Below are positions 3,777-39,718 of a stretch of DNA of 64,000 nucleotides, in pieces. The notes beneath the pieces were generated by a model. That model saw only the letters and a list, made by a program, of their open reading frames with translations, was not told the origin of the DNA and searched no databases. The DNA is from a virus. Its lineage: Duplodnaviria; Caudoviricetes. Position 1 is the first letter of the stretch; each line of letters opens with the position of its first letter. The stretch covers positions 17,434 through 81,433 of the IMG/VR virus record IMGVR_UViG_3300021255_000136. One strand, written 5' to 3'. The position numbers and the translations under genes were made by a program.

Positions 3777-3951
3777 AGAAGTATGGATCGGCCCATACGA
3801 TGACGCTCCGGATTGCGTATATAACGATTGTGTTGGTTGTTATTACCATCATTGTGAGGATTGTGGATGGAACCCCTTCGTGTCCCTTGCCCGCGTCACA
3901 GTAAAATACGGTGAGAAAGCTGCGGACCATTTAACGATGAACGCAGGCTAG
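3757..3951 (+). CDS. small Cys-rich hypothetical protein
   Basis: GGAG RBS; C..C....C..CGWNP pattern. Confidence 0.55.
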   Translation: MDQNISEEVWIGPYDDAPDCVYNDCVGCYYHHCEDCGWNPFVSLARVTVKYGEKAADHLTMNAG

Positions 3952-3961
3952 GGAGGTATTC

Positions 3962-6021: not shown

Positions 6022-7125
6022 ATGGCCAATAAAAAATTAGTTAAAGTATCTCTTCAGCTCCCGGACAAGAGCAGAAAGTACTTTTACGGAAAGACAAAGA
6101 AGGAGGCAGAGCAGAAAAGAGAAGAAGCAAAGCGGAAGCTTTTTATGGGATTCGATGTGGGCAACACCACCACATTCGAGGAACTGGCTGACCTCTGGCT
6201 CACAGAGTACAAGGCCCAGCGCAAACTCCATATACGGACAAAGGAATCCACTGAGGACATAGTCAAGCGGTACATCCTGCCAGAGCTTGGAAGCAAAAGG
6301 GTAAAGGATATCAAGCCAGCAAATATCGACCGCATGCTGCTGAACATCTCTCACCTGTCCAAGAGTACACAGGAGAAGGTTCTGACGTATACGAACAAGA
6401 TCTTCAACAAAGCTGTAGAGAACGATATCATTCCTCACTCCCCCGCGTTCAATAAGAAGCCTACAGCGGATAAGCCAGAGAAGGTAAGGCCGCTCACCGA
6501 CGCACAGTGCGAGGCTTTACTGAAAGCAACAAAGGGAACCAGGGTGTACCCGTTCATCGTTGTCTGTCTGTTCAGTGGTCTGCGCAAAGGCGAGGCAGCC
6601 GGACTGATGTGGAAGGATCTGGACTTCGAGAACCGGATGATCCATGTTGAGAGATCTATCGTATGGCCGAAGTCCAATCGCCAGGGCGAGATCAATACTC
6701 TAATGAAATCTGATGCAGCCCATAGAAAGATCCCGATGGCACCGGAGATCTACCAGGTTCTGAAGCCACTGAAGTCAGGAAGCAAATCCCTGTACGTGTT
6801 CCCCTGCAAGACCGGCGGCTTCATGACAGCGGAATCCATCCGTAGTATGTGGAGCTTCGTAACGAACCGGACAGTCGGTGGGCCGAGTACAGGATATCAT
6901 CTCAAGCCAACACTGGACTTCCATGTTACACCGCATGTCCTGCGCCACACCTGCTGCACGAGATGGATCGCCAATGGGATGCAGCCTAAAGAAGCACAGT
7001 ACCTCATGGGCCATGCCTCGCCGGATATCACGATGGCTATTTATGCAGAATATATGGCTGAACAGGAATTGCCTAAGACCGCAGAAAAAATTAATTCCGA
7101 GAATCTCCGGCTGGCTCTGGGATAA
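6022..7125 (+). CDS. int: tyrosine recombinase (phage integrase)
   Basis: N-terminal arm-binding-like segment; SGLRKGE (catalytic R), KS, HVLRHT, MGHASPDITMAIY (catalytic Y). Confidence 0.95.
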   Translation: MANKKLVKVSLQLPDKSRKYFYGKTKKEAEQKREEAKRKLFMGFDVGNTTTFEELADLWLTEYKAQRKLHIRTKESTEDIVKRYILPELGSKRVKDIKPANIDRMLLNISHLSKSTQEKVLTYTNKIFNKAVENDIIPHSPAFNKKPTADKPEKVRPLTDAQCEALLKATKGTRVYPFIVVCLFSGLRKGEAAGLMWKDLDFENRMIHVERSIVWPKSNRQGEINTLMKSDAAHRKIPMAPEIYQVLKPLKSGSKSLYVFPCKTGGFMTAESIRSMWSFVTNRTVGGPSTGYHLKPTLDFHVTPHVLRHTCCTRWIANGMQPKEAQYLMGHASPDITMAIYAEYMAEQELPKTAEKINSENLRLALG

Positions 7126-14319: not shown

Positions 14320-17300
14320 TTATTTGCGACGGTTGTTCGTGATCTTTTCGTAGTCCGACCAGTGCATGTTGTAGTCGAGTTTTCTTCCGTTAGAGGAGGT
14401 GGCTCTTGAAGAACTGCTCTGGGCGGGTGTCGTGGTGGAACTCGCCTGGGTATTGGGCGGGATCACAAACGGAGTGGTCTGGGTGCCGGATGTTCCGAGA
14501 TCTCTGGTGAAGTCCAGAGGCTGGCTCATCCAGCGGTTGAAGCCCCAGTTCGGATCTGCCTTATTGGCGCGATCCTGTTCGTCAGAAACCTTCCTGACGA
14601 TGCCGAAGTCACGAGCCGTCTGGTTACCGGATGTGGACATACCGGACTTGTGCAGGCTTCCTTCGAATGCGGATGCGATCCTGTCGATCATAGCCACTTC
14701 CTGATCATCAGTAAGATACTTGGAAGTGAACGCATCGAAGTTCTGCTCCATGTAGTCCATGTATGCTTCAACACGGTGTGCGCGTTCAACATAGCTGAGA
14801 GTGTTGTTCTTTACACTTGTACCGACTTTGCTGGTGTAGCGCTGTTGCAGGAGATCGAACTGCTCCTCTCTCGTCAGCTTGTCGTTGAACAGCATGGAGA
14901 AGAACACATCGTTGCGGCTTGCTGTAACGTCGCGCTTATCTTCATAAGGTATGCTGTTATCGATAAGCCACCTTGCGTACTTCCCTTCCTCAAGCTTGGC
15001 TACAGCATTGTCTAGATCACGGAGAGCACCGGCCTGTTCGTTGAAGGACAGAGCCTTGAATTCGGCGCTGTTCATCATCTGGATAGCTACATCGATGAAT
15101 CGCTCCTGTTCATGTCTTGCTTCTGTGTTCTTCTGGTCTGTACTGAGTACCATCTTGTGCCCGATCTGATCCGGGTTGTCAATGCTGGACGCGCCAGTCA
15201 TCTTCCCGGCCATCCACCTGACCTGCTCTTCAACAGTAGAGAAGTTGTCCAGCGCGATCTGGTATGCCTCGGTCCACTTGTATCCGGCCTTTACATCCGC
15301 CAGCGCTTCGACTGCGTACTCATCAGCGTCGTCTTCGATGAAGAAGTCTCCATCCTCTCCGGCCTGATCAGCGGTCATAGTGAACTGCGTCTTCACCTGC
15401 CCGGTTGCAGACAGATTTCGTGCGAAGGCTTCTTCGACCTTAGATGCTGTCGCATTGAATCGGGCTGCTACTATGGCTTCCCTATCTTCCTCGGTCTCTG
15501 CCAGACGGTAGGCGCTGGAGTTCAGGGTTTCCGCATACTCCTTATCCCATGCAGCAGCGAATTCCTTATCGAGGTCTCGCTTCTGTGCATCGGTGAGGTT
15601 AATGACGAAGCCCTTCTTGTCCGGGTTGTCGATCTTGCTCGGTACAGCATAACTGTCAGCGAGGTAAGCAGCCTGCTCTGCAACAGTTCCGTCCATGTTG
15701 ATCGCGACATTGAACTTCTCCTTACCAGCCTGGGATGCTCTGCCAACTTCCATAGCCCTGCTGGAGTTGTCCAGTATCTCGCTGTACCTCTCCTTCGTAG
15801 TCTCACGAGCTCTGTTGTAGGCGTCGTTGATAAGATATCCGCGCTCACGATCATCGGCCTCAGCATAGTCCTGGCTGTTCTCCAGCTTACGCATCTCTGC
15901 TCTGATCTCTTCGTTGAAGATGTCCCGCATCGCCGCCTTGTCCTCATCGGTTATCTCATAGACATACCCGACGTTGCCAACACTGGAGAGCTCTCTCGGA
16001 GGAGCGAACTCTGCTGACACCATGTCAGCTATCTGCTCGGTAGTAAGGCTCGGAGTTACGGCCAACAGCTGGAACAGATCGTCATTGGAGTAGGCATTGG
16101 GCAGGTTGTACTTCGTGGTGATGTAGTCTGCCGCACCAACCTTCAGTGCTGTCTGCTTGGTCATATCCAGTGCGTAGTGATCAGATACCGTGTGCCGTCC
16201 GAAGTCTTTAGCGATATCGAACGCCTGCTGCATCATAGCCAGCTTCCCTGCGTCGTCTGCCTGGATGTACACCGGATCGGTCATAACCTCGAAGCAGATC
16301 TGGTACGCAGCGCTACCGGCTACTTTCATCAGCTGTTCGAATTCTTCAGCCGTGAGATCCTTCAGCCCCTCATCCGTTTTGAAGCTCTTGGACAGTTGTT
16401 TCGGGATTATGCTGTTATCTCCGGTGGCCTCGTACAGTCTCATGAGCTCTGCGTCTACCGGAGTCTCGTTGATCACGTTGGCATAACCAGGCGACAGGAA
16501 GTTCTCCAGTGCTCTGAGGAACCAGCTGTCATTAGTATCCGTACGGCCCCACGCATCGACATATGCCATCTTCTGACTTGCCCAGCCGGGTACCTTGCTC
16601 TGGATCGAGTTCTGAACGAACCGCTGCAGAGCTCCGGGCATCGGGCTGTTCTTATCCGTATAGGTCGCCCTTCTATCCGGGTCTGCCGTTCTGGCGATCT
16701 GGCCGAAGAATGTAGGCATACCCTGGGCGAAGTAGCTCGTGGTCATTGCCGCCAGCAAAGCGGAGATACCGTTGACATCAGAGCTGTAGGCCAGTGAGGA
16801 CAGCGTGTTCTCGAAACCATCCAGCATGGACATTGCCAGCATAGGATCCGCAATACCCATCAGTGCTGTCCACAGATTGGACGGGGTACTGAGATCAACC
16901 TGGCCGCTGACGAGATTATAGATAGTCGCGCCTACGAACAGCGGCATCGACATCGGTGCCATCCAGTCCATAGTGTAGCTAACTTTCTTCCCGTCTACTG
17001 TAAACTCCACTGCCCAGTTCTGATGGCCTTGGAGTTTTTTCATCTTATCCTTATCATCGTCTCCGGTCCCGCCACCACGGAGTAATCCTGCGGAGGCAAG
17101 TAATGCACCGAGGATCATGACGCCGGTACCGGTAAGTCCAGCTGCCATGTTGTCAAGGATCTGCATGGTGTTGCCGTCGCCATTCTTCAGTGCCGCCTTC
17201 AGGTCAACCAGGGACTTGATGAATCCGGGGAGTGAATACTTAGCTGCGCCCAGTACGAGGATGTTGGCCGGGGTGCTGACGAACGGTAACAGTCCTTCCA

Positions 17301-20300
17301 TCAGTACGTTGCCAATAGGTCCGGATGTACTCTTGAACCGGTTCAGTGCCATAGCGAAGGTGTTCAGCTCATGGTAGGTATCACGCTGGGCCTGCATCGT
17401 CGCGTACTGTCTGGCCTTGTTTAGCATCTCTCTGCCTTCTCTGGTGTTGAAGATCGTCGGTTCTTCAGAGTTCTCTTCGCCTACTTCCATAGCCTTCAGG
17501 AGATCTTCTTCAGATACGCCCTGAGCCTGTAGTGCTTCTGCCAGTGCTCTGACATAGTAGCGCTTCTGGAATGCGAAGTCAGATTTCTCCAGGAACTCGC
17601 CATTCTTCTTCGACAGTTTGTCAAGTGGAGCCCAGCCGAAGATGTCGCGCTTGTTCAGGATATCACTGATGTCGTTGAACTTGTTGCCAGTACGCTTGCC
17701 TGCTACGACGTCTTGCATAGTTGCGTAGTCGCGCTGTGCAAACCGGACATAGGTGTTGTCGGACTCTTTGCCAAACAAGCCTACCCAACCGGTAAGTTCA
17801 GCACCGGGTACGTGCATCTTGTACTCGGGGTCAATAATGCCGGGGATCTGTTCAAGACGTCGCAGGATAAGATCTTTCATGAACACTGCGGGCATGAAAG
17901 CTGCATTACCAACGAAGTTCCTTATGTGGGTTCTCGGATTGCCTAGCATCGCCAGATATCTCCAAGCGTTCCACTTATCCATGATCGTTGCGGGGATCTG
18001 GTCAGCAATATCTTTCTTGATCAGTTCCATGATATCGCTGATCTCCTGACGGCTTGTTGCGGCCATCAGTCTCTCTGCCAGTTCCTGGTTCAGAGTGATA
18101 CGCTGCATCTTGTTCTTCGGGTTTTCTATCCTCTTTGCATACGTTGCATTCAGGTGGTTGATAACACCGTTGATGTAGTAGAGCTGGCCTTGCGGTGTCG
18201 CCTTCTTAATAATCGACATCGCCTGTACAGCCTGACCTAAGTTGGTACCCAGGATAGACAGATCGGCTGCTACCTTGACTGCCTTATCATAGGTGTTAGG
18301 ATCAGAGCTGAATTCCTGGATGAGGAGTTCTGCCAGTGCGATCCACTCAGCTCTCGGCAGTTCACCACTCTCGACCATTGCGCTGAATGTGTTCATTGCC
18401 TGATCGAAGTTGCCGTTGAAGCGATTTGAAAGAATGCTACGCGCCAGTCGGATAGACCTTGCGTTGGACTGAGGGGTATATCCCAGCAGCTCATTTGTCA
18501 TACCTTCATACAGCATGCGCTCGGTGAGGTGTTCGTTCTCGACGTTTGCCGCTACGGTCTGCATGTGCTTCCGCACAGCGGTGTTGTCAGCGGACTTCTT
18601 CGGGAGATGTACATCATCCTTCTTGTCGCCTCTACCTTTCGGGAGCTTGCCGTACTTCTTTATAGCGGAGTCGATTGCTTTGTGGAGTTGTTCCTTCTTC
18701 TCCTCGGTCAGGTCGTCGGCGTAGTCAACTACACCCTTCAACCGTTCAAAGCTGTCGGCCAGAGCCTGTGGTCCGTTCCGGTTGACATACTCGTTAACGA
18801 TGTCCTCCAGCTTGAACGGGTCGTTCTGGTTGGCGTTGAGCAGGTAGTTGTACTCGAAGGAGTTGATCGGGAACGTGTCCAGTGTGGTGATCTGCTGGCC
18901 GCTAGCGTTGCGGAAAGTGAAGGTCTGGTCTCCTGTTGCGTTCTCCCTCATCGGGTTCTCGAAGCCAACGGAGAATTGTTTGCTTACACCTTCCTGCGCT
19001 TCACTCTGCGGTTGACTCTGTTCATACAGTTCTCCATTGTCTCCTGTGCGTCGAGATGTTCCTTCTTGATCCTGCGCAGGAACTTCTTCCGTTCCTCGTC
19101 GTAAGCCAGCATCCTGTTCACGGAGACGATATCCAGTATCGACATCCCGATTTGCAGGAGGTATTGTATAAGGTTGCGTTGTGGTTCGGTCAGTACTGTT
19201 GGCATTGTTCATCGCCTCCAAATAATTGATGTATTGTGCTTCGGGGGAATCTCCTCCTACGTTCTCCATGACCACCGTCTCACCAGAGTCGAGCTGGTAG
19301 TATGCGGTATCGTCGGAGTAGTACAGGTTCGGAGAAAGTTCGGACTGAGTAAGGTCTGTTGGGTTGGTGTTGGAGATTTCAACTTCATCGCCGAATGCGT
19401 CGTAGGCAGCATTGGGGTCGATGGAGAGGGAATAGCTACCAGCAACCCCCCAGGAATTTACGGTATTGAAAATTGCGTCTCTGGAGTACTTCGGCGCATT
19501 TCTCCGCCTACGTTCGGCTCCCCATTCCAATCTGCTTTGAACATCTCTGGCCTCGATTTCTCCGGCTGTATTCCTATAGAGATCGTAGTCGGAGTCATTT
19601 TTGTGAGACCGGTTCCTGCTCTGGGAAAGATCGTAGTTACTCAAGAAGTCTGCTACTTCGCCGAGACCATACTCGCCTATCGCCCACAGGAGCTCTTTCT
19701 GATAGTCCTCGCGCTTTTTCTCATAGTATAGCTGGCCATTCTTCTGGAAATCCTGCAGCGTCAGATGAAGCATTTCGTTGCGGGTTTCTGCCATAGCATA
19801 GAGCCGATTCAAGCCATCTGCTGGGATGTACAGTTTCATGGCTTCTAAGGCTTTCTTTGCACGGTCCTTCGGTGTGTACGGCACTCGTTTCCCGTTTACG
19901 TCGATCTGGTCGTCCCAGGCTTCGAGATTTGAACCGCTCGCAAATCCTTCCATATACTGGATAGCGTGCTGTATTTCATGCATCAATGTACTGCGTACGT
20001 CTCTCTCGGCCTCTGATAAATACCCGACGAGGTCATCAAGAGCAATTGTGATCGTGAAGCTGGAGGGATCAAATTCGCCGCGTACATTACTCGGCATTTC
20101 TGTGAAAACAACGGTATAGTTTTTAAGGTCAGGATAGTTAGCAAATAACATCCCGGCGTTTCTTAAAACTTCTGGGAGCTTATACTCGGACCTGTAGTTT
20201 TCTGCGTTACCAAGAGAACTTTGTATAGCCGCGTTCCATTCCTGATCAAGTACAGCAGGACGTATGGTAAAGTCCTTATCATAGATCTCCCACTTCCATT

Positions 20301-23300
20301 TGCCGTCAACGCCACGGAACCATCCAGTATCTTTCCAGATTTCATCCCGGCTGTATCCAGCTATTTCCCTCTGCTCAGCTGATTCGAGTTTACCGAGATC
20401 AGCGCCTTTTGCAGCTGGGCCAGCGAGGCTAAATCTTTTCTCAATTCTGTCTACTTCATCGCGGACAGCTTGAGCGCTCTTCCGTTCTTTCTTTGCCGCA
20501 TCTCTTTCAGCTTTAGTCTGATAAGAGTACGGGAACGGTTCAAGACCTGCCTCTTCACGAGCGGCGTTTACTTCAGAAAGATATTTTCTGTAGTTAGCTT
20601 CAGATAGCCCTGTACCAGTAAGGTCAATTGGAACGCCAACTTCCTGAAGAGCAGAGAGCAAACCGGAAGGTACAACATTGAAAGGCACACCAAGACCGGG
20701 TGCTTCCCTGTCGAGGATCTCCTTGTACTGCTGGGCAACTTCGATGTTGGACAGCTTACGTACCGGCATGAGCCACCGAGAAAGATACACATGTCTTTGT
20801 GTGTTTTCTAACTGGCTTGCTAGGGAGCCGCTCTTCCAGTCGTGCATACCAACAGCATCTTTTGCAGTAACAATATCTCCGTCAGAACGAGTTGCCTTTT
20901 CAGGATCTGTTACACCGAAGTGATAGCCGCTGGTCAGCTCACTCTTTGGAATGGCGCACATATACGTTACCAGGTTGGGACGTTTGTACGCAATGGAGAA
21001 CTGGTCATTGAGAACTACATCGCTAGAGTGCTGGTACGGGTTATACGCAGCCGGTACCACGGAACCATCTACGTCGCTCTTCTCAAGTCCATAAGTCCAG
21101 GATACTTCACCGGTCTTGTCATTGACTTTCTTACCGAGGCTCTTGGAGTTTGGATTGCCTACTGACTCTTCCCACACCCCGGGACGGAGAGCATGCGATT
21201 GGCTCTTCTTGCCTGTCTCGTCTTTCTGCACACCGGCCATAGGAGCAATAAGATATGGATCTCCGTTCTCGTCTTCGTACTCAAGGAATGATTTGTATGT
21301 GTAAACCACATCACCGTTCTCGAGCTGATCGTTAAGGAAGTTCAGCGTATCTGGATCGGAAACAGCGATGGAATACATCGGGTCCATGTCACGCTGTTCA
21401 GAAGTTTTATATCGGTCTATCCTTCTATTATCTTCATCAACAGCTTCGTTCTTAGCTGCTATCTGCTCGTCGTCGAGGAACTGGTTCGGTATATACTTCA
21501 AGAAATGCCCGTCCTGAGGATTGACATTTTTAAAGATATCTGCTATACTATATGTAGCTGATACCAGGGCCGATGCAGGAGTCTTAGATTCCTCCGTCCT
21601 CCCCGTGACGTCAGCTTTTATTTTTGCCAACGCGACGGTCATATACAATTTGCCTCCATCATTGGAGGTATTTTTTATTTCAAATTGTACTGGGACGAGG
21701 CTGTTCTCATCTTTGAAAACACTAAGTAAAACCTTTGTGTCTATTAGATTTCGGCTTTCTCGTTTCGTACCGGCGTATTTATCCGTATGCGCTTCAATTA
21801 GAACTGCCGAATTTAATAAGTCATCGATGTTGATTAGCGCTTTTGCAAAGTCTAAGTAAGTCCCGCCTGTTCTGAGTTGCTTGTGAAGACTCTCCCTTAA
21901 ACCACCGTTTTTAGAAAACAGAAATTCGATTTCTACTTCAGGAGAGGATAAGGCCCGATTTAGTATTCCAAGCTTTTCTGCTAACGGATAAATGACTTTC
22001 TCCGCTCTGCTCTTGGCTATACTCTCTGCTTCCAGCTCGCTAAGTTCTTCTGCATAGTCCTGAGATTTTGTATCGACAACAGCAGTAATAGTACGGTCTT
22101 TAAGTTCCTCGTAGCGCTCATCTTCGGTCATCCCGGCAGATATAGAATACTGCTTATTGACACCCTCACCGTCTTGTGGTATACTATTATTCGACGCTAT
22201 GGGGTGCCGGGCGAACCAATCTTGGTTTTCGCCATTGAAGTCGATGTTCGGATTATTTCTGGATGTCGGCTGGAACGCGACTCCCACGGCGTTATTTTTT
22301 TGCATCATTGCATGGTACAAAATACTACGACCGTCATCAGCTTGCGCTATGCTCAGGATTACAGGATATATATTCTGCCTGTCCATGACGTAAGCTTTTC
22401 TATATTCAAATCCGTTCCTATCCATCCACTGGTGGTTCTCTCTCGGGTCGGTGTCCTGCTCGGAATAGCCCTCGAACTTGGAGATCTGCACTACTTCCGG
22501 AGCGTTGAGGTAGACCATACGAGTCGTGCGGTTCCTGCCTCTACCATACGTTAGCTCTGTCAGAGGATGGTGCGCGTTGCCATGCTTTGATACGTCCTTA
22601 TCTTTGGCATCTGCAAATACAATAGTCTCCGGTACGCCGTAGTCGGATACTGTTCCGATCTCCATACCAGCGAAGTTATTCATAACGAAGTTATTAAACT
22701 CAGCGTTTCTGAAGTACCTGCTCTTGAGGTCAGTATCCATGTAGACAACTTCGTCATAGGTCTGGCCGTTAACGTCTACAACATTCTTTGCGACGGAGAA
22801 CCGCATATCTCGATTACTATCATCAAATCTCTGAGACAGAGGAATAATATTGCCGTCGTCGTCATATGTGACTGCGTCGGCTCTTTTTATATTCTCTGCG
22901 TTCAGCATGATGTAGGACTCGTTACCGGCGTCTTCCATCTCATTGATGTACCGGATGCTGTCGTAACCCAGACCGAGTAAATACTTCTGTGCGGACAGGT
23001 TGGCGATTCTTCCGAGGTCATCGAGATCGTCGTCCGTCACTGCCGCGCCTTCAAATTCGCCCTCGTTGTACAGAGCATCCTGCCAGCGTTGCGCATCCGC
23101 TTCGTACTGGTCATACGCCTCGTTCCTTACCAGAGCCTCTTTGAGTTTCTTCGAGTTGGCCTTGGTCCACTTGGTATTAACAGCGCGTCTCGGAATGTAC
23201 CCGTCCTCGATCCAGTCATCGACGTCGTCCATCATGTTCTTCAGGGCCATAGGATCGCCCCACACATCCGGTGTACGGAGTGTGTTCTCCATCTTGAGAT

Positions 23301-26300
23301 ACACATCGTAGATGCCAGGGTTGTCACCGAGGTTGTTGTACAGGTTGTTGTAGAATGCCTCAGCTGCAGCTCGCGTACCGAAGTGAACACCAAGTTCGTT
23401 CGCAGATATCATACGGAATTCATTGAATCCGAATGACTGCGTACCGTGGAATGCTTCCTTCTTGTACCCGGCTTTCTTCGCTGCCTTCTCTACCATAGCC
23501 TGCGCTGTTTCCATGTCGTCGCTCTTTACAGCGTCCATGTACTGCTGGTCGGATTTGCTCAGGCTGTACTGCATACCGGGGTGCTGCTCCTTATACTGGG
23601 CAACGAACTTGTCTACGATACCGTGGGCGACCGGGAATACGTTCGGGTTCTCGTCGTAGCTGTTGAGCATACGATTGACCTGATCCATATTGAAGATAGG
23701 ACGTACCGGCAGCTGGGGTGAACCGTTACCGTTGTTGTCGTACATCTTGAAGTCGATCAGGAGTTTCCAATACCCATCCGTGCTTCCGTCTTCCTTCAGG
23801 GAGTAAGATCCATCCTTATTATCAGTAAGGAACTTGTAGAACTTAGGCCTCTTACCATCCCTTGCACACATCCCGAGATACTTCTCCGCGTTCTCTTTCC
23901 CGGACTTACTGAAGTCCCAGTACTCGTTCGGCATGTAGTTCGTGCATTTGGTTGGGACGTCTCTACCCTGCCATTTGTGCGTGTGCTCTTTGGGATTAAG
24001 CCACTTCTCGTTCTGCTGGTATGTGTAGTCCTTTGTAGTAGCCGGAAGGCCCATAGCTTTGTACTGGGCTTTCTTCCACTGGCTGCGATGGAATGGAATA
24101 ATAAAGTCGATCCGATCATCGGCCAGAGCAGCAAGCAGCTGGGCGTCATCATAGACGCAGCAGATCGTACCGACGTTCCTCGGGTATGCGTTCCTCAACT
24201 CCATAGCTGTGTCGAAGTTCATACCTTCTTTATTATTAAAGACTAATTTACCGTTCTCATCCACAGACCATGCGTCAATACTCAGGTTGATCTTCAGCCC
24301 TGTATCGCCAAGCGCCCATGCGAAGTCAGGTACTTTCGTGTAGGCCTGACCCTGCAGTCCTACTCTACTCATATCCGTTATCACTTGCATAGCATCTATG
24401 AGATGTACGATTTCAAAGTCTGAGAAACTTTGCATGCGGATACCGCCGTTCCGGTTCTTCTCCCGGATCATATCAGCGTCTTCGAAATGCTGACGGATCT
24501 CGCCCTTGTACGCGCTTCTCATCTGGTACAGCTTCGGCTTCTGCTGACTTGCGAACAGGTTCTTGTCGCCCTTCCGTAACGTACCATAGTGGTTCCAGAA
24601 GTACTCGTACTCTTCATATACTTCCGGGTGGTTCTGCCGTACCCACTCAATACCGTCCGGTGTATTCATCTGGGCCATGTTCGGTACCCACTCACCCGGA
24701 TGATATTTCTCGTACAGCTTGAGGAACTCCTTGGTGAAGATGCCCATCGTAGCGCGTGAACCTTCGACGTAGCATTTACCGCAGCTTACTTCGAGCCCGG
24801 CGTCGTCCATCATTGCCCTGATACTCAGAACATCGAACGGAGTCAGTACGGTATTCGGTAATGCGTTCTGGATAGCGCTGAACGTACCGGTGAGCAGTCT
24901 GCGTTTTTTGCACAGTGTGGTGAAGTCAAAGCTTCCGCCATACTCTGCATTGCTTACGAACGGAGACTTGCCGGTGTCTTTATAGTCCAGACGGCCTTTG
25001 TCTTCAGCGATCATCTTGGCCACGCTGTTAACGTCATCAACCCACTTCTCAGCCTGTTCGTAAGTGACACCGAGCTGTTCGACAAGCGCGGTGATGGCCT
25101 TCTCCCTGTCGGTTACGTAGTCGCTTGCGTTCCATGTAGATAGTGAATAAAGTTTATTGGCGCTGTCACCGTTCGTCTCTATCTCGGATGCACCGGAGCT
25201 GAGTGAGAAGAACATCGAAAGATTGGACACATAGTTCTTCTTCGGGGATGCCGCCTTCTCTTTAATATCCATAACGATGGACTCGGGGCTGGTGCTGAAG
25301 TCATAGAATGTGGTTCCGTATCCGCCGTTTATCTCAACCGTGAGCTTCGGATCTTTGGCCCATTGTGAAGAACCCGGCCAGTCCTTGTGCGAGAATACCC
25401 ACTTAATATAATCGAGTAGCTTTTCACACTGCACATCGGTTAGCTCCGCGCCAGCAGACGCCTCGATTGCCGGACCTTCTGCCGCGATACGGACATTGCC
25501 TCTCTCGATGAAGTCCGAGCGATAGTTATTGTTATCGGGTAGCAGCTTAACTCCTGATTGTTTATAAGCCTTTTCGACTGTACTGTGCGTAGCACCACCG
25601 GTCCGCATCCCGTTAGGGTTGTTCTTCATCCAAGTGCGCATTTCCTCCACTTCTTCTGCCGGTTCGCCCATTGCGAGCAAGCTGTCCATCTGCTGGTCAA
25701 TACCGGAGAAGTCCAGCATATCGCCGTATGGTGTGATGTACCCGCCATAGCAAAAGTATGGTGTGGTTCCGAAGATCTCAGTGGCCGCGTCTACTACCTT
25801 GACTGTACTGGATCTGGTAGAATCTTTCCAATCGTCAACGGAAAGGCTGAAGAACATCGCAAACGGTGAGACGTACTTCCGTTTGAAAGAACCGTGCTCA
25901 TAGTAGTAAGCGATCTCGTCTGTTATGTCATCCGCGCTCTGGCCCAGCTTGAATGTCTTGGACTCAGCATTGTTTCCGTTGTCGTCCATGATATCCACCA
26001 TGAATGTATCGGAGCCATGTACGCGTCTGTTCTGCTGTGCCCACTCGATGTATTTCTCGATTGTGGCAAGCTGTTCAGTTGTCGGCGCTGTTGTTTTGAA
26101 GAGGTGAACACCCGGTGCTTCAGGCTGCATACGGATGTTGCCCTGCCTCATGAACTCCACCATGCCTTTATCCTGCATGTTGGTGCCGACGTCGATACCA
26201 ACAGACTTATAGACATTAGCGATTTCACGATGGTCAACAGTACGGTTTTCCTGGAACTTTTCATACGTCTGACGGTCCTGAGGTCTGAGCTCATGGGAGC

Positions 26301-29300
26301 CGGAGAAGTTAAGCATCTGGCCCTGCGGAATAATGTATCCGCCGTGACGATAGTTAGAGGTGATACCGAACGTTCTGATCGATGCCATCTCTACCTTGCG
26401 CTCGTCTTCTGTAGCGTTCTCGTACCAGTCCTGAGCAGAGGAGATGCTGAACCGGAAGTCAGGATCATTGGTCGGGTTTTTGTTGTCCGGGTCCTTGAAC
26501 TGGTTGGACTCGAAGCCGACAACAATCGTGGCGAGCGTTCCGTCCAGAGTACCATCGTCTTTGCCACCTACATCTTCAATGTTTCGGAAGATAACGCCGT
26601 CATAGCCATGAGCATGTGCCCAGTTTACAACGCCGTTAGTGGTCATAGTTCCCGGTATGTCTTCTCTAAACAGGAAATTCTCCTGCTGCTTCGGGTTTCC
26701 TATTCTCTCCAGATATGCCCGGATGCCGTCCTTATCGGAGAGTCTACTCCATATTCCGCCTTCAGCGTCATAGATATACGGATTCTTCAGATTCGCGTAT
26801 AACGGTCTGTTGCCTCTGGTTGTGAAGTCCTCTACCGTCGGCGGTGCAAATTGTTGTGCCAGTTCGATTGCGTCTTCTCTGGACACCATCTCGCCATCGA
26901 ATTCGAATACGGACTCGTTATTCTCATAGGCGTCATACAGTTCGTCGTAGAGGTATTCAAAGTTATCGAGTTCTTCCTCGAGCTGGTTCATGATCTTGTC
27001 TATGAACCTCTTCAGCGATGGCGCGATTTCTGCAATCTCCGGAAGATGATCCCGTGCAATCTTAGCCTGCTCGATAACACCTTCGAAATAGTTATCGGCA
27101 TCACCAGCCGCCGCCTCCATAAGATTCCGTATCCTTTGCGCTGCGTTTAGGAAATCCTTAGAATACGGGGCCAAAGCCATTAGTGTATCGAGACTGTGTG
27201 CGAGAGTATACAGGTTCTCTACATTGTCATACAGTTCGTTCTCGACAAATACTCGACCATAGCCGTCACTGTACCCGGTCTCTTCCTCTGCCCTCTTAGC
27301 AAGGAAGTCGCCCAGCTCGTTGTCGTCCATTTCCTCTATACCCGGTACCTCAGTCATCTCACGCATGGGGTTAACCTCACGCATGGTACCTGAGTAAGAT
27401 CCGGCTATACGAGGATCGTCCACCGCAAAGAAGCTCAGATGGTCTGCCGCCCACTGCGGGTCGAAGATGTTCTGGGTGGCGTGTGTAATAGATCCGTGCC
27501 ACAGCTTCAGCAACCGGCCCAGATTATCTCTGACTCTGGAGCCTTTGAAGTACTCCAGCTGACCTCTGGACAAGCTGGCACCTTGGTTGTCCTCAGCTAC
27601 ATTATCGCCGTCCATAGTTACCGGCTGGCTAAGACTGTACTGCTTGCCCTTCACGAAATCACTGTAGTCCTGCGTCTGGGCTGCTTCGGATGTAGCGTAT
27701 TCTACCAGCTTGTTGTCCAGCTCGAACTTCTGGGCTAGGCGCTGGTATGTCGGCATATCGGACTGAATAAGCGAGACACCATGCATCCACGACATTCTAT
27801 CTATGCCATTTACTAGATCGGCGTACATCTCGTTGAGGACGGCCTGCTCGAATTCCTCTGGGGATTTATTGGCATAGGCGTCTTTGTAAAGGCCGCTATA
27901 ATAGTCGTAGAGCCGGTCGAACAGGGATTTCTTTCCTTTGAAGATTGCTCCTATCGCCTTCTTCAAATACTTAGACCGTTCAGCGTCGTTGAGCTTCTTG
28001 AGCATCTCGTGGGATATCTCGTGGTGCGCATTCTTAATATCCCTGTTGACGTTAATGATCATGGTATCCATGCCGTGATTATTAAAGACCACGCCATCAA
28101 ACGGAGTTCTATTTATTACCTTTCCGTTCTCGTCACGGATCAAGCTGTATAGACCATCCGCGTCAACAAAAAAGACCCGTTCTACGCCAGCGCTTTGTGC
28201 GCGGCGTACAGCAGATCTCTCCTCATTAGTAAGTACGGACTCGTCATCCGAGAAGGAATCGTAGACAACGAAGCCGTGGTTATATTCTATTGTATCTCTC
28301 TTCTTCTCGCCTGACAGGTCGAGAAGAGTTGCGTTTACTCGTCGTCCCCGAAGATCTCGTCCATCAGAGCTTTCTTCCGCCCCTGATATTCCTTCTCCTC
28401 CTCCGCTGTTCTGGGCTTCGGATTCAGCGGATCCCACTTGCCCTGCTGATACAGTTCCAGCTGCTCCTGAGTCATCGGGATTGACGCTCCGTTCGGCAGG
28501 CGTACTATCATTCGGTCGAATATCATTATCTGTTCCTCCATGTCTGGATTGTAGTGTTGCAAGGTCTTCCTGTGCTGCAGCTAACTTACGCTCCACTTCC
28601 TGCAGACGTTCAGCGTTGCCTTTGGGATCATTATATATCCTGTCACGCTCTGATGTCAAGCTAGCTATTTCACGCTGTGTGGACTCGACAGTAGCGCCGA
28701 CATTAGGCACACGGAACGGTTGAGGTGCTGTCTGGGTCTTAGGCGCGGATTTCTTCGACGTGGATTTCTTGGGCTCGCTTTTTGTGCTCTTCGCCTTCTC
28801 TGCAGTCTTGTTCGACGCGGTACGGTCTGGTTTGGTAACGGTGATTCCGTACTCCACTTCCATTGTGCCAAATGTATCGTTGGCTGCACGGTCCATCATC
28901 ATATCGAACTGGAGATGCGCCTCTTCTGCGGATTTGCCCTTCGACACCTCGCTCTCGACAAACTCACGACGTGTCTTCCACGGGAATGACGGATTGAGAC
29001 GTACCTTATCCTCCCAGCTTCTGGGATGGACTTCTCTGGCCCCGAGCTTCTTCTCCAGCTCCTCATCGAGGTTCTTTACCTTCTGCTCTTTGGGGTTCTT
29101 CGGCTTCTCTGTGGTATCCGCCTTGTCGCCCTTCTTCACGACTGCAGCGCCAGTGTCAGTACCCTCAGTCTTGGCCACCCAGTTTATAGCTGCGTTCTGT
29201 CCTGCGCCGTCGAGGATAAGTTTAAATTCTTTCGCCGCTACGTCCAGAGTAACATTAGAGTTCTGAGCGTGGCGCATATTATAATAAGAGTAGACATTGT

Positions 29301-32300
29301 AAGTCCTGCGCCCGATCTTTATCTGACGACCGGCCACATCCTTTGCACTCTGCGGTATAGACGCCTGATAGGAAGCTATCCTGGTCTGCGGGTCCAGACG
29401 AGGTGCTGGCTGTGCCGCCTTGGACTCAGTCTTCGTCGTGGTCTTGGAGGACTGTACACGCGGTGCTCTATTCTCTGTAGCCGCACCTGGCATTGAAGTA
29501 TTAGCCGGAGGGATAACGTCCATACGGAATGCTTCGATATTCGGGTTGTTCGTACCACCAAGCTGAGCCTGTTGTCTTGCCTGCATCAGCTGCGCAAGAT
29601 TGTCATTTGCATGAACGGGTGTAGGAGTAGGACCATAGGAGCCTTGTGTATACCCCATGGACCTGTTCATCTGTTGCTGGCCACGATACTCGCGTTCGTT
29701 GTTCTGGCTAATACCCGCGCTTCTGGCTTCCCGCTGTTCAATGTTGGCATTAGCAAGACGGAAGAATTTCCATGTGTTGTTCAGTACGTCGTTGATATCC
29801 CCGGTCTGGATAACCTTCAGGAGATCCTCAGACTGCTGGCCTACCGTATTAAGAATGTAGTTGTAGATCGCATTCCTCGTATTGTAGTCCTTCATGAAGT
29901 CTTGCGCTGCGAACTCCTGTATGCTCTTATAAGTAATACGAGCAGAACCTTTGAGTATTCCTTCTAGGAAAGACTGTACATCCGCTGCTGTACCTGCATC
30001 CAGACCATATTTGTCATGGAGCGTGGTACCGATATCCGAAAGAACAATACTATTCGGATTTTGAGTCTTGGCATAGAGGTACGCCATAGACTCCGTATTC
30101 TGTCTGGCCTCGTGGTCAAACTCGTTAACAGCGTTGAAGAACCAGTTCGGCATGGTTTTGAACATACCCTCGCCGTTCTCGAGGACAATAGCGTTGAACA
30201 TACCCGGATCGAACTCACGAACCATAAGAGCCAGCTTACCGATATCTCTTGCAATATCTCCGGTCTTGGCCGTGTTGTTGGCCTGTTGTTGCTCCAGATA
30301 CTTCAGTCGTGATGCGTCGTTCGGTCGGCTCTGGTTGTTCTTCATCCGCTCATAGATCTCTGCGATCTCGGCTTGGATTCTAGTACCGTTCTCAGCCACC
30401 GCCTGCATTCTACTGTTCCAGCGGTTACGGATGTCCTGAGCAAGTGATGTAATCTCTCTTGCCTGCTCGCCTTTGTCGAAACCTCTGTAGTCCGTCTCGC
30501 CGTTCCCTTCAGTCGGGCCCGGAGTAGGAGTACCTTCTGTGTGAGTTCGTGCAGTGGTTCCTTCTGTAGCGGTTTCTGTATCGGTGGTCGTGTCCTGCGG
30601 GTTCTGTACTCTAAGCGGCTCACCTTTCTGGGTATCGGCACTCGGTTCGCCATTCCGGGAAAGCTCGGTGCCGTCTACCGTAGACTGTTCCTGCTTGGTA
30701 TCTTTGCCCACAGAGTATTGCTTGCCATTGCTGCTATCGGCCATCGCTGCCCTGTAGTCTTTTAGATACTGGCGGGCATCGTTTCTCTCAGTTTCTGCCT
30801 GCTGGCGCATAGTTTCAAAGTTGCCCATCGCTTCATCTACAAAGCTCTTGGTCTCCGAGTGTTTATTGAGCTCGTGGAGTACAAAGTCTATGCCGTACCA
30901 TAGTGTGGCATAGTCGGTTTTTTCGCTTACTCCTTTTTTCCGGTTGCCCGCGTCACCGAGGTCAATAGTCGTCCCATCGCTGAAATTAATCCAAGCTTCG
31001 ACGGCTACATCTGTAGGCGCCTTCGTGGCCTTATCAAGTCCGCCATTAAAATATTTCTTACGCTGCTTGTCTATTTCTTCTCGCGAGAACCCAGATTCTG
31101 CGAGAGCACGAAGATCGTATGGGGAATCAACATGAATTACCGTGCCGTCGGCAAGAGTCCATTCGTAACCGAAGTTGTTCGAGTTAGTCCAGTGATCGAC
31201 GTCTTTGGCTTGGTCCATCATACTGAACAGTGCGAAAGCATCTTTAGCGTCATTAAGCCGCGTAAATTTATCGGATGCATTATACACATTATTCTGTGCT
31301 TCTTCTAGTCCCGCAATCCGTTCTGCTTTTGTCTTTCCGGTAAGATCAATTGGCTTCTTATCTTTACCGGGAGCAGACGCGTCTTCTTTGCCGCTATTCT
31401 GCTGATCGTCAAATTGTTCCTTCGTGGGGATTACAGGTGTAGCAGGCGCCTCGTTTTGTTGCTCCGCTTCGGCAACTTCCGGTGCCTGCTCTGTAATCGG
31501 ACTAGCAGGGGTCTGGTCTACTGATGCTGGCTCAACTGGGGCCGTGGCTTCTTCAGTCGTCGTTCCGGTTGTTTCACTTGTCGCGCCGGAGGTTACTGAC
31601 GGGGCATCACTAGTATGCGCGAGAAGGTACTGCATCGCGTCATTGTATTTGCCGCGTACGTCGTTAAGTTTATTCTGTAGTTTTTCAACCGCTGAATCAT
31701 ACCAGCCATTTAGAATATCGGCGACATCTTTATTTGCATTTCCTATCTTCTCAATGGTCTGATCTATTCCGTCTTCTTGTTTATAATTATAACTTGCGAC
31801 GTACTCTGCCTGAGATTTAAATGTCTGTGTCTTTCCCTTTGCCCCCGCATTGAAACCGGTGATTGTTCCGTCTCCGTTGTATATAAACGCTCTCGGGAAG
31901 AGATGATGTTTATCCCCGTCTGCGAATTCAATGTGGATGTTCTTTCCGTTTGCAAGCTGTTTTTCATAGGCCACGCCATTACCAAAGATTGTAGGTACCT
32001 TCTTACCCGTTCTTGCAATGGTAGAGAATATTGTCGCAGCTCTGCCATTCTGCTGCAGCTTCTCAAGCCTATCTTCAAGCCCTGTCTGTTCCTGATTCAG
32101 CTTGACAAGGTTGTCGTAGTTCTCGTTATATTTCTGCTGCTCTGGCGTTAGCTCTTCTTTTGTGACTTCGGGAGCGTTCTCCGATACTCCTTCTGCTTCA
32201 GAGCTTCCGTTCTTCACTTCAGCAGCAAGTCCAGCCTTAGCTGAACGGATCTGGTCAGCCATGTTCTTGATCGTACCAGTGAGCTCTATGCCGGTGATAG

Positions 32301-35300
32301 CTTTAAATGCATCACGCAGGCCTTGGTCTCTTGCGATCTCTCTGGCTTCCTTAATAGTAACAGAGTCCTGCTTCCTGTTGAGGATGGCCTTTACACGACT
32401 CTCTTCTTCAGTGTCGTCAGGAGATGACGGGAACTTACCGTTCTCATCAGCCTTTGCACGAGGTATAGCCAGAGGTTGCTGCTGTTCTGCTCTCTCTTCC
32501 CCGTGGCGATTCGGTGCTGGCCCTGTAGGTGTTGTGTTTGCGGGAGGAATAATTGCCGGTGCCTGATTCTCCTCGGGAGTACTACCTTCCTGTGCAACCG
32601 GTGCTGCAGGAGCAGCGGGTGTTGCATTCGCAGGAGGAATAACTGCCGGTGTCTCAGGTGCTGCAGGAGCCGCGTTTTCAACTGTAGTCGTCTCCGTATC
32701 ACCAGTGGTTTCTGACGGAGTATACCCAGCCTCTGCTGCGCGTTGTACAGCAGCAGCCACAGGTGTTACGGGAGACTCGGCAGCGTACTGCATCATCACC
32801 GGGTCTTTGGAATGGTCTAGAACAGAGTTGGTAAAATCTATACCAAGACCGCTTTTCAGCATATCGTTACCGATCTGCCTGTACGTTTGGTTGGTCTTGC
32901 CTTCTCTTACGGCATTACCGAAGCCCATCAGTGCACCACTGGCAAAACTGTCTGTTACAATGTCAGCGAGTTTTTTCTTTTCTTCCTGCTTCAGGATATA
33001 CTCGGCTTCTTCTGGAGTAATGTCAGATTCTTGAAGCAGTTCATTCTTTCTGGTGTGATACTCACTTCTCTCGCCTTCAATCCACTCCGCGATAGCATTT
33101 GTGAGTTTTTCTGTATTGAATTCTTCACTGGCCTCAACGAAGCCGGACGTAGACGTTTTTAATACGCCGTTAACTATATCGTTAAAGAGCCCGTTACTGG
33201 AGAGTTCAATATCCGGGATCTTATCGAATATGATATCAAGGGATACAGCTTCACTAAAGCCATCTGCAAAAGCACTGGCAAGAGCGTATTGGTTGGCTTT
33301 ATTTACATCTCCGGTACGTGCAAACGATTCTTGGAATGCATTTGCATAAGAAGCGCCGCCATAAGCCAGTGTCGTATACCCCCAGGAAATAGCTTTTGCT
33401 GCGGCTTCTGTAGCCAGCGCGGGAGCTGCAACCCCGGCAACTGATGCAAGAGCGCCAGCCATGCCAACAACGTATGTCGATTGCATAGCACTCTGTAAAG
33501 CTTTAGGCAATGTAGCCGCTGAAAGTGTAGTCTCACCGAAGAACGGGATATTAATATTTTTCTGCCAATGTTCTCCCAGTTCGCCATAAAGCCCGGCATT
33601 AACAGCGTCCATAAGTTCCATAACAGTTGGATTAGCATAAATCGGAACTTCGCCGGTACGTTTGGCCTCATTATAAAATCCGATTGAATCAGTTATGCCA
33701 AAGCCTAGAGCTGTTGGTATACCGGTGACAAATATTGAGCCCAGCAGATATGCCGCTCCAGCCGCATCGCCCCAGTTGCGCTTCCCGTCGAACAGATTAC
33801 CGGCCATTGCTGCGGAGAAGTCCTGTACCGCTTTGACTCTGGCCTCATGCGTTTCACCGTCATGGAGTCTGTTCTGGTCCTTTGCATACTCGAGAGCCGT
33901 CTGCAGCTCACCGTTGCCGATGTAGTAGGCATAGGTCTGTAACTCAGTATAAGACCACGTATCATTCGGGAGTACGTTGCCTACACCGAAACGCGCTATG
34001 TACTGTTCCGCTTCTTTCTTCTGAGTATCGGTCAGTCCAGGGATGACATCCAACAAGCCAGTTACGCCCTTTAGTTGCTGCTGGTATGCCTGCTGCGCGT
34101 TTGGATTGATAGTATCTTGATCGATCCTCTTAGATCCGCGAATAGCCATAGCCAAGTCAGCGAATCGTTCACCGGCTTTTACTTTATCCTGATAATTCTT
34201 ATCACGCTGGATATCTACGCCATAAACCCCGTGGCCTTGTTCGTCCACGCCGACCTGTACCTGAATACCACGGAAAGATTTCTGATAGCCAAGCTCTTCG
34301 TTCTTCTGGTCGATGGCCTTCTGATACTCTGGATGTGCTGCGTCAAAATTTGTCCAGAGCGTATTGAGAGTGGACTCGTTACCGGATTCCCACCAACTCG
34401 AGTTAGGCTTATTTCCGTTGCCAAGAAGATAGTTAGCGTACTCTGTTATAGACTGGTTCAGTCTGGCGTCGTATTGTCCGGACGCCGCAGTATCAAGCAG
34501 ATAGTTTGCAAAAGCCTGTTCTCTTTCACCAACCAGCCCGCGATTACCGGAAGCGTATTCCGGATAGGCTTTAAAGAAGTCCATGTCCAGCTGTTCCTGG
34601 AACCGACTATTAAGCCCCTTAGCATTTCCAAGTCCGTGCTCCTCTTTCCATTGCTCAGAGAAGTCGGTGTAATCCGCGTTCCAGTCATCCATGCTGTAGC
34701 CGAGTTCTGCTTTTGTCTGGGCAATTATATTCTCCAGACCACGGCCAGAGTTGTCGCTGATAAGGCCTATTGCCGAGTTGTAATAGTCACGGGCCTTCTG
34801 AGTTTGTAATTCATTCTGGAAGAACTTAGCTCTCTTGGTCTGCTCGTCTGTCAGCTTAGTATCGTCTTGAGAAGAACTATATTTCTTTTTCTCTTCCAGA
34901 ACTGCTTTCTGCTGAGCAATCAGATCGTTATAGAGCTTTACGTTCTCGTCATTCGGATCTAGGACATCATCTATCTGACTATCCAACGCAACGATCTGCT
35001 CGTCAAGTTCGTTATACTGTCGCGTCCAGTATGACTCATACAGGGTGTCGCTGATTTCGTTCTGAAGCTTATCTCTCGCAATGCGGGACTCGGTGAGCGT
35101 GTCGTATTTACCGAAATACTCTCCGGTTTCACGATAATGTTTGGCTGCTTCTGAACGGGACAAGTACTGCCATTCGCCGTTCTCGTCTTTAACCATAGCC
35201 GGGACGTTGACATATTGCCCGTCGTCATAGACCATGTACGCATCGAAAGCATCTTCCAGCTCGATATCGTCGTCTTCCTTGTCCGGTCCGAAACCGACAA

Positions 35301-37630: not shown

Positions 37631-39718
37631 TCAATAGAGACTTATTTGCCTTCCAGACGGAAGGGTATAGAGCTGGCTTGAACCGGATGCATTATCCCAC
37701 GCCGTGTTCAGATTCGCGCGATCCATATCAGCGGTTGTAGCTGTAGTAGGTACGCTCCAGTTGGTAGGTAATACATTTCTGTCGGCGGCTAAAGCATTAT
37801 TAAGGTTCGCAAGGTCAGTAGAGGTATCCGCACTAGCCGTAGCTCCGCTCGCCGTTGGCGTCGTAGTCAAACCGGTTAAGCCACCCAGAGCCCCGCCATA
37901 GCCAAGAGCAAACGGGTCAACAACGGACGATGTCGTCTGATTGTTGCTCGGCAGATTAAGCGACGGGTAATAGCTCATTTGCGTTCCGCCGCCAAGTCCG
38001 AACGCACCAGAAAGCGCACCGCCAGCAGCAGACCTGTCGTAACTTGCTGTTGGCATAGACGCAATCGCTGCGGCCTGTTCAGCCAGCATGCCCATAGCCG
38101 AGAGCTGTTCAGCCGTTGGGATGATGCCCTTCTCCAGCAGTGCCTGACCAGATGCCGCAAGGATCTGACGGGCATTCTGCTGTGCCTGATATGTCGGCGT
38201 ACCATCCGCAAAGGAACCCGTTGCCTCAGCCGCTTTAAGTTGTGCCTCAAGTGCGGCATTCCGTGCGTTGATGCCATAGTTACCGGCATTGATCTGGTTG
38301 TTGAGATAGTCATTCGCTGCATTCCTTCTCGCATCGAACATCGCCTGCTCCTGGTTGTATGCAGCATTGAACAGATCAGTAGCCTGATTCCAACGGGCGT
38401 TGTACAAACTGTTCTCCTGCTGATATGCATTCTGCCAGAGCTGCTGTGCCTGATTCCATCTTGCATTGTACAGGCTGTTCTCCTGCTGATACGCATTATT
38501 GAACTGGTTCTGGTTCTGCTCCATCATGACCTTGGCCAGATTAAGATTCGATGCCTGAGCCTCAAGTTGAGCATCCACCAGACTTAGCTTGTAATTCTCT
38601 TCCCACTGAGCAACCTGGAGATTGAACTCGTCAATGCCAACGTTCGCCTCTTTAGCCCATGTGGACAAATCCATCAGCTTGGACAGATACTGCTGCGAAA
38701 TATTAAGCAGCTGATTTGCTTTCTCGAATTCGCCCTGAGCACGGAGATCGGCCACCTGTCTTGCCGTGTCTGTTGCCAATTGCGTCTGCTCGGTCTGTAC
38801 CGTCAGTCGATTAGTAGCCGCTGTATTCTGGATCGTATCATACTGAGCCTGACCAATACCGCCACGGTCACCTCTTGCTTCAGTATACAGTGCCTGGTTG
38901 TCCTTTGCTCTGGCCTCATCAATATCGATCTGCCTCTGCTGAGTCTGGAACTGGCGCTGTGCCTCCTGCATCTGTCTCTGCAGTTGTGCCGTACCTTGCG
39001 CAACATTATAGTCCGCACTGTTAATAGCCTGCTGCCTCTGAGCCTCAGTCAACTGGCCAAGCAGTGCCTCTTCTCTTACGGTGTCTATGTTGTTTACTCT
39101 GCCGACATCGACCCCCGCTTCCTGCATCGCCTGCTGGAAGTTGATCTGATCCGGTAACGCAACCTTATCCGGAAGAGCGATCTCATTCGGAAGATTTACA
39201 TTGTTCGGCAGAGCTACCTCATTAGGCAGCGCAATATTATTCGGCAGAGCTACTTCATTCGGAAGAGCTACCTGCCCAGGTACATTCAATTGAGTCTGCT
39301 GTGGAAAATTAAGCCCCGCATTTTCCAGAAGAGCTTTATTAGCGTTGGCGTTTGCAGGGTTATTATACAGGTTGTCTCTTACTGCAGAAGTATCTACTGG
39401 TTCTGCAGGCTCTGTTTCTGCTGGTGTAGTCATACCCATAAGCATATCCGTGTAGCCTTGCAATCCGCCGATATCTCGTATGCCCGCGCCAGAGTAACTG
39501 CGTCTTGAACTGGATGAACCTGTCCGTGCTCTCTCTGCTGCGAGGTCTGCTGCACTTGGTCTAGGGGTATCGTCTACATAGTAATGATGGCTTCCGGCAT
39601 AACTGTAGCTCGGTTTCCAAGAACTGTCACCGCCCGGAGCGCCGTATGGGTTTTTTACGCCTGAAGGATTGGATTCTGTCGCGGGCACAGTGCCACTACC
39701 AGTACTAGAGACTGCCAT
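37631..39718 (-). CDS. putative DNA ejection/pilot protein (Q/N/A-rich coiled coil)
   Basis: GGAGG RBS; position just before the giant gene; long Q/A-rich helical segments, ALPN hexad repeats and a duplicated NAYQQENSLYNARWNQA. Confidence 0.6.
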   Translation of the reverse strand: MAVSSTGSGTVPATESNPSGVKNPYGAPGGDSSWKPSYSYAGSHHYYVDDTPRPSAADLAAERARTGSSSSRRSYSGAGIRDIGGLQGYTDMLMGMTTPAETEPAEPVDTSAVRDNLYNNPANANANKALLENAGLNFPQQTQLNVPGQVALPNEVALPNNIALPNEVALPNNVNLPNEIALPDKVALPDQINFQQAMQEAGVDVGRVNNIDTVREEALLGQLTEAQRQQAINSADYNVAQGTAQLQRQMQEAQRQFQTQQRQIDIDEARAKDNQALYTEARGDRGGIGQAQYDTIQNTAATNRLTVQTEQTQLATDTARQVADLRAQGEFEKANQLLNISQQYLSKLMDLSTWAKEANVGIDEFNLQVAQWEENYKLSLVDAQLEAQASNLNLAKVMMEQNQNQFNNAYQQENSLYNARWNQAQQLWQNAYQQENSLYNARWNQATDLFNAAYNQEQAMFDARRNAANDYLNNQINAGNYGINARNAALEAQLKAAEATGSFADGTPTYQAQQNARQILAASGQALLEKGIIPTAEQLSAMGMLAEQAAAIASMPTASYDRSAAGGALSGAFGLGGGTQMSYYPSLNLPSNNQTTSSVVDPFALGYGGALGGLTGLTTTPTASGATASADTSTDLANLNNALAADRNVLPTNWSVPTTATTADMDRANLNTAWDNASGSSQLYTLPSGRQISLY

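Follow-up and report, generated by a model that had tools for sequence, protein, structure and literature searches.

A short peptide recurring at module joints of a giant polyvalent protein of an uncultivated gut phage, and its possible role as a processing signal

Background

The closest described counterparts of the protein reported here are the polyvalent proteins of Iyer et al. 2017 (PMC5512222), presented in the searched passages of that paper as giant multi-effector chains encoded in phage structural regions, with ART-PolyVal, LPD23, LPD3-like and zincin-like peptidase domains, and predicted there to be processed into units by zincins. Those passages name no junction or cleavage site, and zincin self-processing, predicted since 2017 without a named site, has therefore been hard to test. 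A full-text literature search returned no description of a junction or cleavage motif of the kind described below, and a 2026 preprint on phage phi24B describes a 2,811-residue LPD-bearing virion protein, regarded there as an ejection protein, without naming a cleavage site in it. The subject of this report is P0001, a protein of 7,763 residues encoded by a single open reading frame (14320-37611, minus strand) in the window, that is, the whole 64,000-nucleotide stretch analysed, which covers positions 17,434 to 81,433 of the IMG/VR record IMGVR_UViG_3300021255_000136 of an uncultivated gut phage. A short peptide of the form x[YF]S[LIV] was found to recur at about 13 joints between its modules, where it may serve as a processing signal.

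P0001 contains two ART-PolyVal domains and one LPD23 domain above the Pfam cut-off, together with a weak LPD3 match that is below the cut-off and is backed by more than 80 relatives. Because these domains occur together in one chain, P0001 is a phage-type polyvalent protein in the sense of PMC5512222: several unrelated effector and LPD domains are joined in one polypeptide, virion genes adjoin its gene, and zincin modules are present. It differs from the examples in the searched passages of that paper in that a specific peptide can be mapped to its joints, and it is among the largest of them. By analogy with H66 gp60 and phi24B gp47, which are virion proteins by mass spectrometry, P0001 would travel inside the virion and enter the host together with the DNA. 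Its layout consists of an N-terminal region of about 2,300 residues, about 12 unrelated cassettes, among them two ADP-ribosyltransferases (the ART-PolyVal domains), two zincin peptidases and an LPD3-like module, and a conserved C-terminal region of 1,550 residues. Every joint of the cassette array bears the peptide: K, R, Q or another residue comes first, then Tyr or Phe, Ser, an aliphatic residue (Leu, Ile or Val) and finally Ser, Gly or Ala.

Enrichment of the motif in P0001

A sequence-only reading of this DNA had listed 14 x[YF]S[LIV] sites in P0001. All are present, each coordinate given there being the low end of a 12-nucleotide site, and four further matches were found (LYSL at 28141, SYSL at 23797, QFSI at 20992 and KYSL at 17230). 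The same reading had claimed an excess over chance, roughly estimated as 13 sites against about 3, and a shuffle test bore this out: [YF]S[LIV] occurs 18 times in the whole protein against 6.2 expected by composition, and none of 5,000 shuffled sequences reached 18. Seventeen of the copies lie in the central 3,950 residues (3.5 expected; P = 2e-7), and the first 2,298 residues are free of it. Copies of the extended form, [YF]S[LIV][SGA], number 15, where composition predicts 1.4 for the whole protein (P = 3e-11) and 0.77 for the central part. The three-residue form ranks second among 29,791 three-position patterns (P about 2e-5) and, having been chosen post hoc, fails multiple-pattern correction on its own; the four-residue form heads the list of 923,521 four-position patterns by enrichment and keeps a P of about 3e-5 after Bonferroni correction. 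Controls in which the motif was permuted or substituted were not enriched in P0001. Chance as the cause of the motif was thus ruled out by the composition and shuffle test and by the pattern ranking.

Joints between modules and their ownership of the motif

The positions of the motif were compared with the boundaries of homology between P0001 and its relatives. Residues 4925-6075 were searched against 1.8 billion representative proteins (7,595 matches at E up to 0.001) and residues 3310-4950 against a collection of 5.8 billion proteins (118 matches), and the matches were re-aligned locally, yielding block starts from more than 260 database relatives. The sequence-only reading had proposed checking whether breakpoints between homologues fall on the motif, and they do: 75% of 190 blocks in the first search and 79% of 122 in the second start within 15 residues of a junction motif, compared with an expected 12-13%. 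Only 18/190 and 33/122 blocks cross a junction by at least 30 residues, whereas 140/190 and 107/122 cross look-alike sites within domain cores. Accordingly, about 13 of the 18 matches are true module joints and five are in-core or chance matches. The earlier claim that the motif sits where one domain ends and the next begins therefore holds for the former, where homology breakpoints, the ends of Pfam envelopes and two AlphaFold models agree, and fails for the latter.

The motif belongs to the joint and not to any one fold. In relatives, unrelated cassettes carry it whatever their neighbour: it is found at the N-terminal end of the LPD3-like module, of the cassette that begins near residue 5413 and of LPD23, and at the C-terminal tail of the ART domains and of the family formed by the cassettes at residues 3721 and 3921. 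In the ART tails it closes off more extended conserved elements, for example vIPLSeRFnxxxxDI-RYS-L and iKsxxNxxPTxxPDI-RYS-LS, both of which are present in P0001 (at 22792-22848 and 26443-26505).

Stand-alone homologues of the LPD3-like module (P0061, P0112, P0126, P0152 and P0168) have a start methionine that aligns three residues past the motif, so the motif lies outside the LPD3-like fold; P0112 was confirmed on its contigs to be a separate gene with its own upstream gene. Among embedded relatives, 82/82 LPD3-like and 22/23 LPD23 modules retain the hydrophobic position, and just 15/82 and 10/23, respectively, have [YF]S. Since the hydrophobic position is nearly invariant and [YF]S is much less often kept, the downstream module starts with the aliphatic residue, and [KRQ][YF]S is the part specific to the joint. 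The flanks of the motif are more polar than average, and in two AlphaFold models the sequence upstream of QYSIS and RFSLA is disordered (predicted local distance difference test score, pLDDT, 35-54), order starting at the motif. A MAFFT alignment that mixed in long multidomain relatives misaligned the 5413 cassette and was not used for folding.

Two further features of the joints were noted. Junction motifs are often paired, 7-20 residues apart, as in FFSL...LYSL (25141-25212) and KYSR...SYSL (19426-19491), and the same is seen in relatives; it looks as if each cassette brought its own copy to the joint. Residue Met 5161 (22129-22131) corresponds to the start methionine of the stand-alone LPD3-like genes and is internal (xMTEDERY) in most embedded copies, where it may be left over from a start codon or act as an internal start.

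Pro/Thr-rich linkers of P0001 hold five copies of a further linear motif, [VIT]IPP(A)N (32617-32643, 32527-32553, 29491-29517, 19141-19167 and 14440-14466). It resembles the vIP(L/P)SxRF element found ahead of RYS joints in relatives, and [LIV]IP is the most enriched three-position pattern of P0001.

Map of the joints

All features of P0001 are encoded on the minus strand, so that coordinates fall from the N-terminus to the C-terminus. The N-terminal region (residues 1-2297; 30721-37611) has no junction motif and contains two transmembrane-like hydrophobic segments (residues 1286-1307 and 1378-1399). The first junction, QYSV(G) (residues 2298-2301; 30709-30720), opens the cassette array. The first zincin module, with HEISH at residues 3197-3201 (28009-28023), has homologous modules in P0003, the 6,128-residue protein encoded at locus L001 of a sister phage (IMGVR_UViG_3300021400_000136), and in another relative, P0006. 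Beyond it lies QYSL(S) (residues 3324-3327; 27631-27642), and then the cassette with the first ART-PolyVal domain (26455-27639), whose Pfam envelope stops five residues short of the next motif, RFSI(S) (26443-26454), which is preceded by the conserved tail NQFKDPDNKNPTNDPDF.

The following two cassettes, residues 3721-3920 and 3921-4134, are paralogues (27.6% identity) that can be aligned from motif to motif, and each ends with FFSL(S) (25843-25854 and 25201-25212, respectively). Twenty residues past the second of these, LYSL(S) (25141-25152) opens a Cys-rich cassette of 527 residues that is closed by QYSL(S) (23560-23571), a joint at which KFSLK, RFSLK and KFSLS are the commonest forms among 64 aligned relatives. 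The cassette with the second ART-PolyVal domain (22804-23568) ends with IIPLSQRFDDSNRDM before RFSV(A) (22792-22803). Three residues before the LPD3-like module, QYSI(S) (22141-22152) coincides with the disorder-to-order transition in the AlphaFold model.

MYSI(A) (21367-21378), in a coil with pLDDT of about 61, is at the left end of a DNA block shared with L001 (92.9% identity; residues 5410-5719). RFSL(A) (20425-20436) forms the first residues of the Pfam LPD23 domain, in a cassette (19435-20433) that also holds the second zincin module (HEIQH at 19966-19980). SYSL(S) (19426-19437) has a relaxed copy, KYSR, 18 residues upstream (19477-19491). The last junction, QFSV(G) (18967-18978), opens the C-terminal region (residues 6213-7763; 14323-18975), and a second DNA block shared with L001 (83.8% identity; residues 6101-6210) stops two codons earlier. 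The C-terminal region shares 39% identity with its counterparts in P0003 and P0006 and contains hydrophobic segments at residues 6769-6787 and 6826-6844.

The five look-alikes are LYSL at residue 3155 (28141-28152), in strands ahead of HEISH; SYSL at residue 4603 (23797-23808), in a core segment that reads [ST]YSL[QK] in most of 108 aligned relatives; TYSI at residue 5354 (21544-21555), in family-conserved strand 218-221 of the model of the LPD3-like module; QFSI at residue 5538 (20992-21003), in a family-conserved core segment of which relatives keep only QF; and KYSL at residue 6792 (17230-17241), beside a hydrophobic segment of the C-terminal region.

Occurrence in other polyvalent proteins

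The motif is also enriched in P0003 (15 copies against 5.1 expected). In other giant relatives the code is relaxed to [KRQ][YFM]S with a hydrophobic residue, R or D behind it. After query-like parts were masked, 97 copies of [KRQ][YF]S[LIVMF] were counted in 83 other polyvalent proteins, about twice the 45 expected; none of six control patterns, permuted or substituted, exceeded 1.13 times its expectation there. Over 203 large proteins the relaxed motif occurs 347 times against 116 expected. The termini of database proteins are not enriched in the motif.

Possible processing at the joints

The reading preferred here, considered about equally likely to hold or to fail, is that the joints are processing sites of the form [KRQ]-[YF]-Ser↓hydrophobic that are cut by an on-board zincin. 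One of the two HExxH zincins would hold the motif in extended-strand form and cut it, most likely between the serine and the aliphatic residue with the aromatic residue at P2, and cutting would free individual enzymes, either inside the capsid or once they have been ejected into the host. A Ser↓hydrophobic bond would fit the split ownership of the motif, with [KRQ][YF]S as P3-P1 and the hydrophobic residue of the downstream module as P1'. A hydrophobic P1' is preferred by many zincins.

The earlier statement that two HExxH peptidase modules are on board proved correct, HEISH (residue 3197) and HEIQH (residue 5878) being the only HExxH strings in P0001. In the LPD23-linked zincin, H163, E164, H167 and G302-E303 are invariant in 48 relatives, and its best matches by fold are weak (Z up to 5.4) and comprise IrrE/PprI, SPRTN, selecase and CapP, which are site-specific minimal zincins; IrrE/PprI and SPRTN are activated by DNA. 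A search of the complete genome for head proteases of the S78 (PF04586) and ClpP (PF00574) types, other protease families not being searched, found neither. The two zincins appear to be the only recognisable peptidases and are the candidate cognate proteases. Processing by them is consistent with the presence of two such modules, the lack of an S78 or ClpP-type match, the absence of the motif from stand-alone homologues, and the ownership of the hydrophobic residue by the downstream module. Also in its favour are the enrichment of the motif, its place at module boundaries beside unrelated cassettes, the onset of order at the motif in the models, its polar flanks, the excess of the relaxed form in other polyvalent proteins, and the prediction of zincin processing in PMC5512222. 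A weak covariation points the same way: proteins with either type of zincin have the hydrophobic form of the motif more often, relative to the charged one (odds ratio 1.75; P = 0.01, uncorrected for relatedness).

A broader form of the proposal is more tentative, being judged somewhat more apt to fail than to hold: the motif would be the cleavage code of a self-processing effector polyprotein, a counterpart of the MARTX toxins, cut at every joint after delivery, with code and zincin co-evolving between lineages. If such co-evolution is real, it would account for the YSR, YSD or quite different junction peptides of relatives.

Several observations weigh against cleavage by the on-board zincins. 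The charged residues that follow the serine in relatives (YSR, YSD, MSR) mean that a single fixed specificity cannot cover all joints. Motif density is equal in proteins with and without an LPD23-type zincin (3.0 and 3.1 times expectation). The motif is not enriched in gp60 of Pseudomonas phage H66, which mass spectrometry identified as a virion protein and which has an LPD23-zincin module; because the relaxed motif is broadly enriched but not in gp60, the code is widespread but lineage-dependent. At the LPD23 joint, FSLA is modelled as a confident first beta strand (pLDDT about 89), which could limit access. Finally, the searched passages of PMC5512222 cite the N4 virion RNA polymerase, ArdC and TraC1 as bearing zincins yet travelling unprocessed.

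The last two of these points favour a rather unlikely alternative, that the chain stays intact and the motif is an uncut delimiter, a short anchor or insulator at one or other end of a module that aids independent folding or docking to a shared partner, for example the capsid interior or a chaperone. The position of the hydrophobic residue within the downstream domain in two families also agrees with it. However, the [KRQ][YF]S part is dispensable in stand-alone homologues, the same peptide adjoins unrelated folds at either of their ends, and its presence in a fraction of the embedded homologues implies that folding does not need it.

Cleavage by an off-board protease, either one of the host or a phage enzyme that escaped recognition and works while heads are assembled, would explain why motif density is independent of the LPD23-type zincin, and many genes of this phage belong to no recognisable family. 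This explanation is quite improbable, as the genome is rated complete and contains no S78 or ClpP-type head protease, the form of the motif covaries, if weakly, with the on-board zincin type, and the motif is unlike the sites of Prp on L27 (LQFF↓A) and of the T4 and phiKZ head proteases.

Exchange of cassettes between related phages

The sequence-only reading had offered conserved junctions for cassette shuffling as the alternative to cleavage sites. Shuffling at the motif stands, in that homology breaks there, cassette order differs among relatives, and the two DNA blocks that the sister phage has in common with this one end 2-7 codons away from MYSI, RFSL and QFSV; related phages thus swap modules at the motif. 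A single-protein scan of viral contigs recovered the sister phage only. What finds no support is a signal in the DNA itself. The codons at the 13 joints vary freely, the tyrosine or phenylalanine and the aliphatic residue being encoded by several codons and the serine by AGY and TCN at a ratio matching that of the remaining P0001 sequence; because the codons are not conserved, selection acts on the peptide and not on the DNA. Breakpoints more likely cluster at the motif because recombinants between modules survive than through a recombination signal. It is therefore very improbable that short shared nucleotide stretches promote the exchange, as the breakpoints near the motifs and the varied cassette order might suggest: too few nucleotides are shared at the joints to make a recombination substrate, and breakpoints between modules would arise in any case when recombinants inside folds are lost.

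Genome context and other features

The gene for P0001 accounts for 28.6% of the 81,433-bp genome, the record of which is complete with direct terminal repeats. Upstream on the same strand are genes for a large terminase, a portal protein, collagen-like tail fibres and an endolysin; the closest terminase found, with 66% identity, is encoded in a human-gut genome of an uncultured Clostridiales. Immediately ahead of the giant gene lies a gene (37631-39718, minus strand) for a protein of 695 residues without a family match, equal in length to gp59 of H66, which is likewise followed by a giant virion protein; no similarity between the two was detectable. A GIY-YIG/NUMOD3 homing-endonuclease gene (50785-51492, minus strand) lies among the structural genes, and a stand-alone GP88-family gene (Pfam E = 7e-18) was found at 61136-61978 on the plus strand. 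A link between the latter and the 527-residue Cys-rich cassette was not backed by BLASTP (E = 0.62).

Within P0001, a repeat domain of the form GNI(D/N)L...IP...G(E)W is present in two copies (33% identity) in the N-terminal region, at about 35890-36170 and 35050-35330 (residues about 494-581 and 763-844), and the relative P0005 ends with the same domain. A tblastn search with residues 2281-5154 against 50,697 phage records gave no match, as did an NCBIfam search with the whole of P0001. A PHROG match of residues 2226-2429 to "head maturation protease" (E = 2.5e-5) was not taken as a protease, for it sits in a low-complexity linker.

Comparison with known systems

P0001 belongs to a known class, and its mapped junction code is a new feature of polyvalent proteins. 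A defined peptide at 13 joints, found in hundreds of relatives, provides concrete substrates for cleavage assays and mass spectrometry. It also provides a rule for splitting giant polyvalent proteins into their real functional units, many of which are uncharacterised anti-host enzymes of gut phages.

In the MARTX toxins of Vibrio, a cysteine protease within the toxin cuts the effector array at linkers containing Leu, and strains exchange effectors. P0001 is alike in that a mosaic effector array lies between conserved terminal regions that have hydrophobic segments, in the exchange of modules between related phages, and in having an on-board protease, here the candidate zincins, and a short linker signal. 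It is unlike them in its protease class and its motif, and in that the target would be a bacterium reached through a phage tail. No Pfam or NCBIfam match to a MARTX-type cysteine protease domain or to glycine-rich repeats was found anywhere in P0001, so the resemblance is one of architecture only.

Phage head proteases likewise act at short recurring peptides that mark cut points in virion-packaged cargo, gp21 of T4 at L/I-x-E with capsid-targeting sequences and gp175 of phiKZ at S/A/G-x-E. For P0001 such cutting is predicted only, the motif is a different one, and the cargo is one chain and not many proteins. Polymorphic toxins also have short conserved peptides at the border of swapped variable modules, VENN in CdiA and DPxGL in Rhs, the Rhs motif being a self-cleavage site as well; these mark one border per protein, whereas P0001 has about 13 in series between unrelated modules. 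The polyproteins of RNA viruses, cut for example by 3C protease at Q↓G/S, share with P0001 the use of one short code at every joint and a protease within the chain, which in P0001 is a candidate. They differ in that P0001 is encoded by a DNA phage, carries zincins instead of a chymotrypsin-like protease, and would deliver a cargo of enzymes instead of replication proteins.

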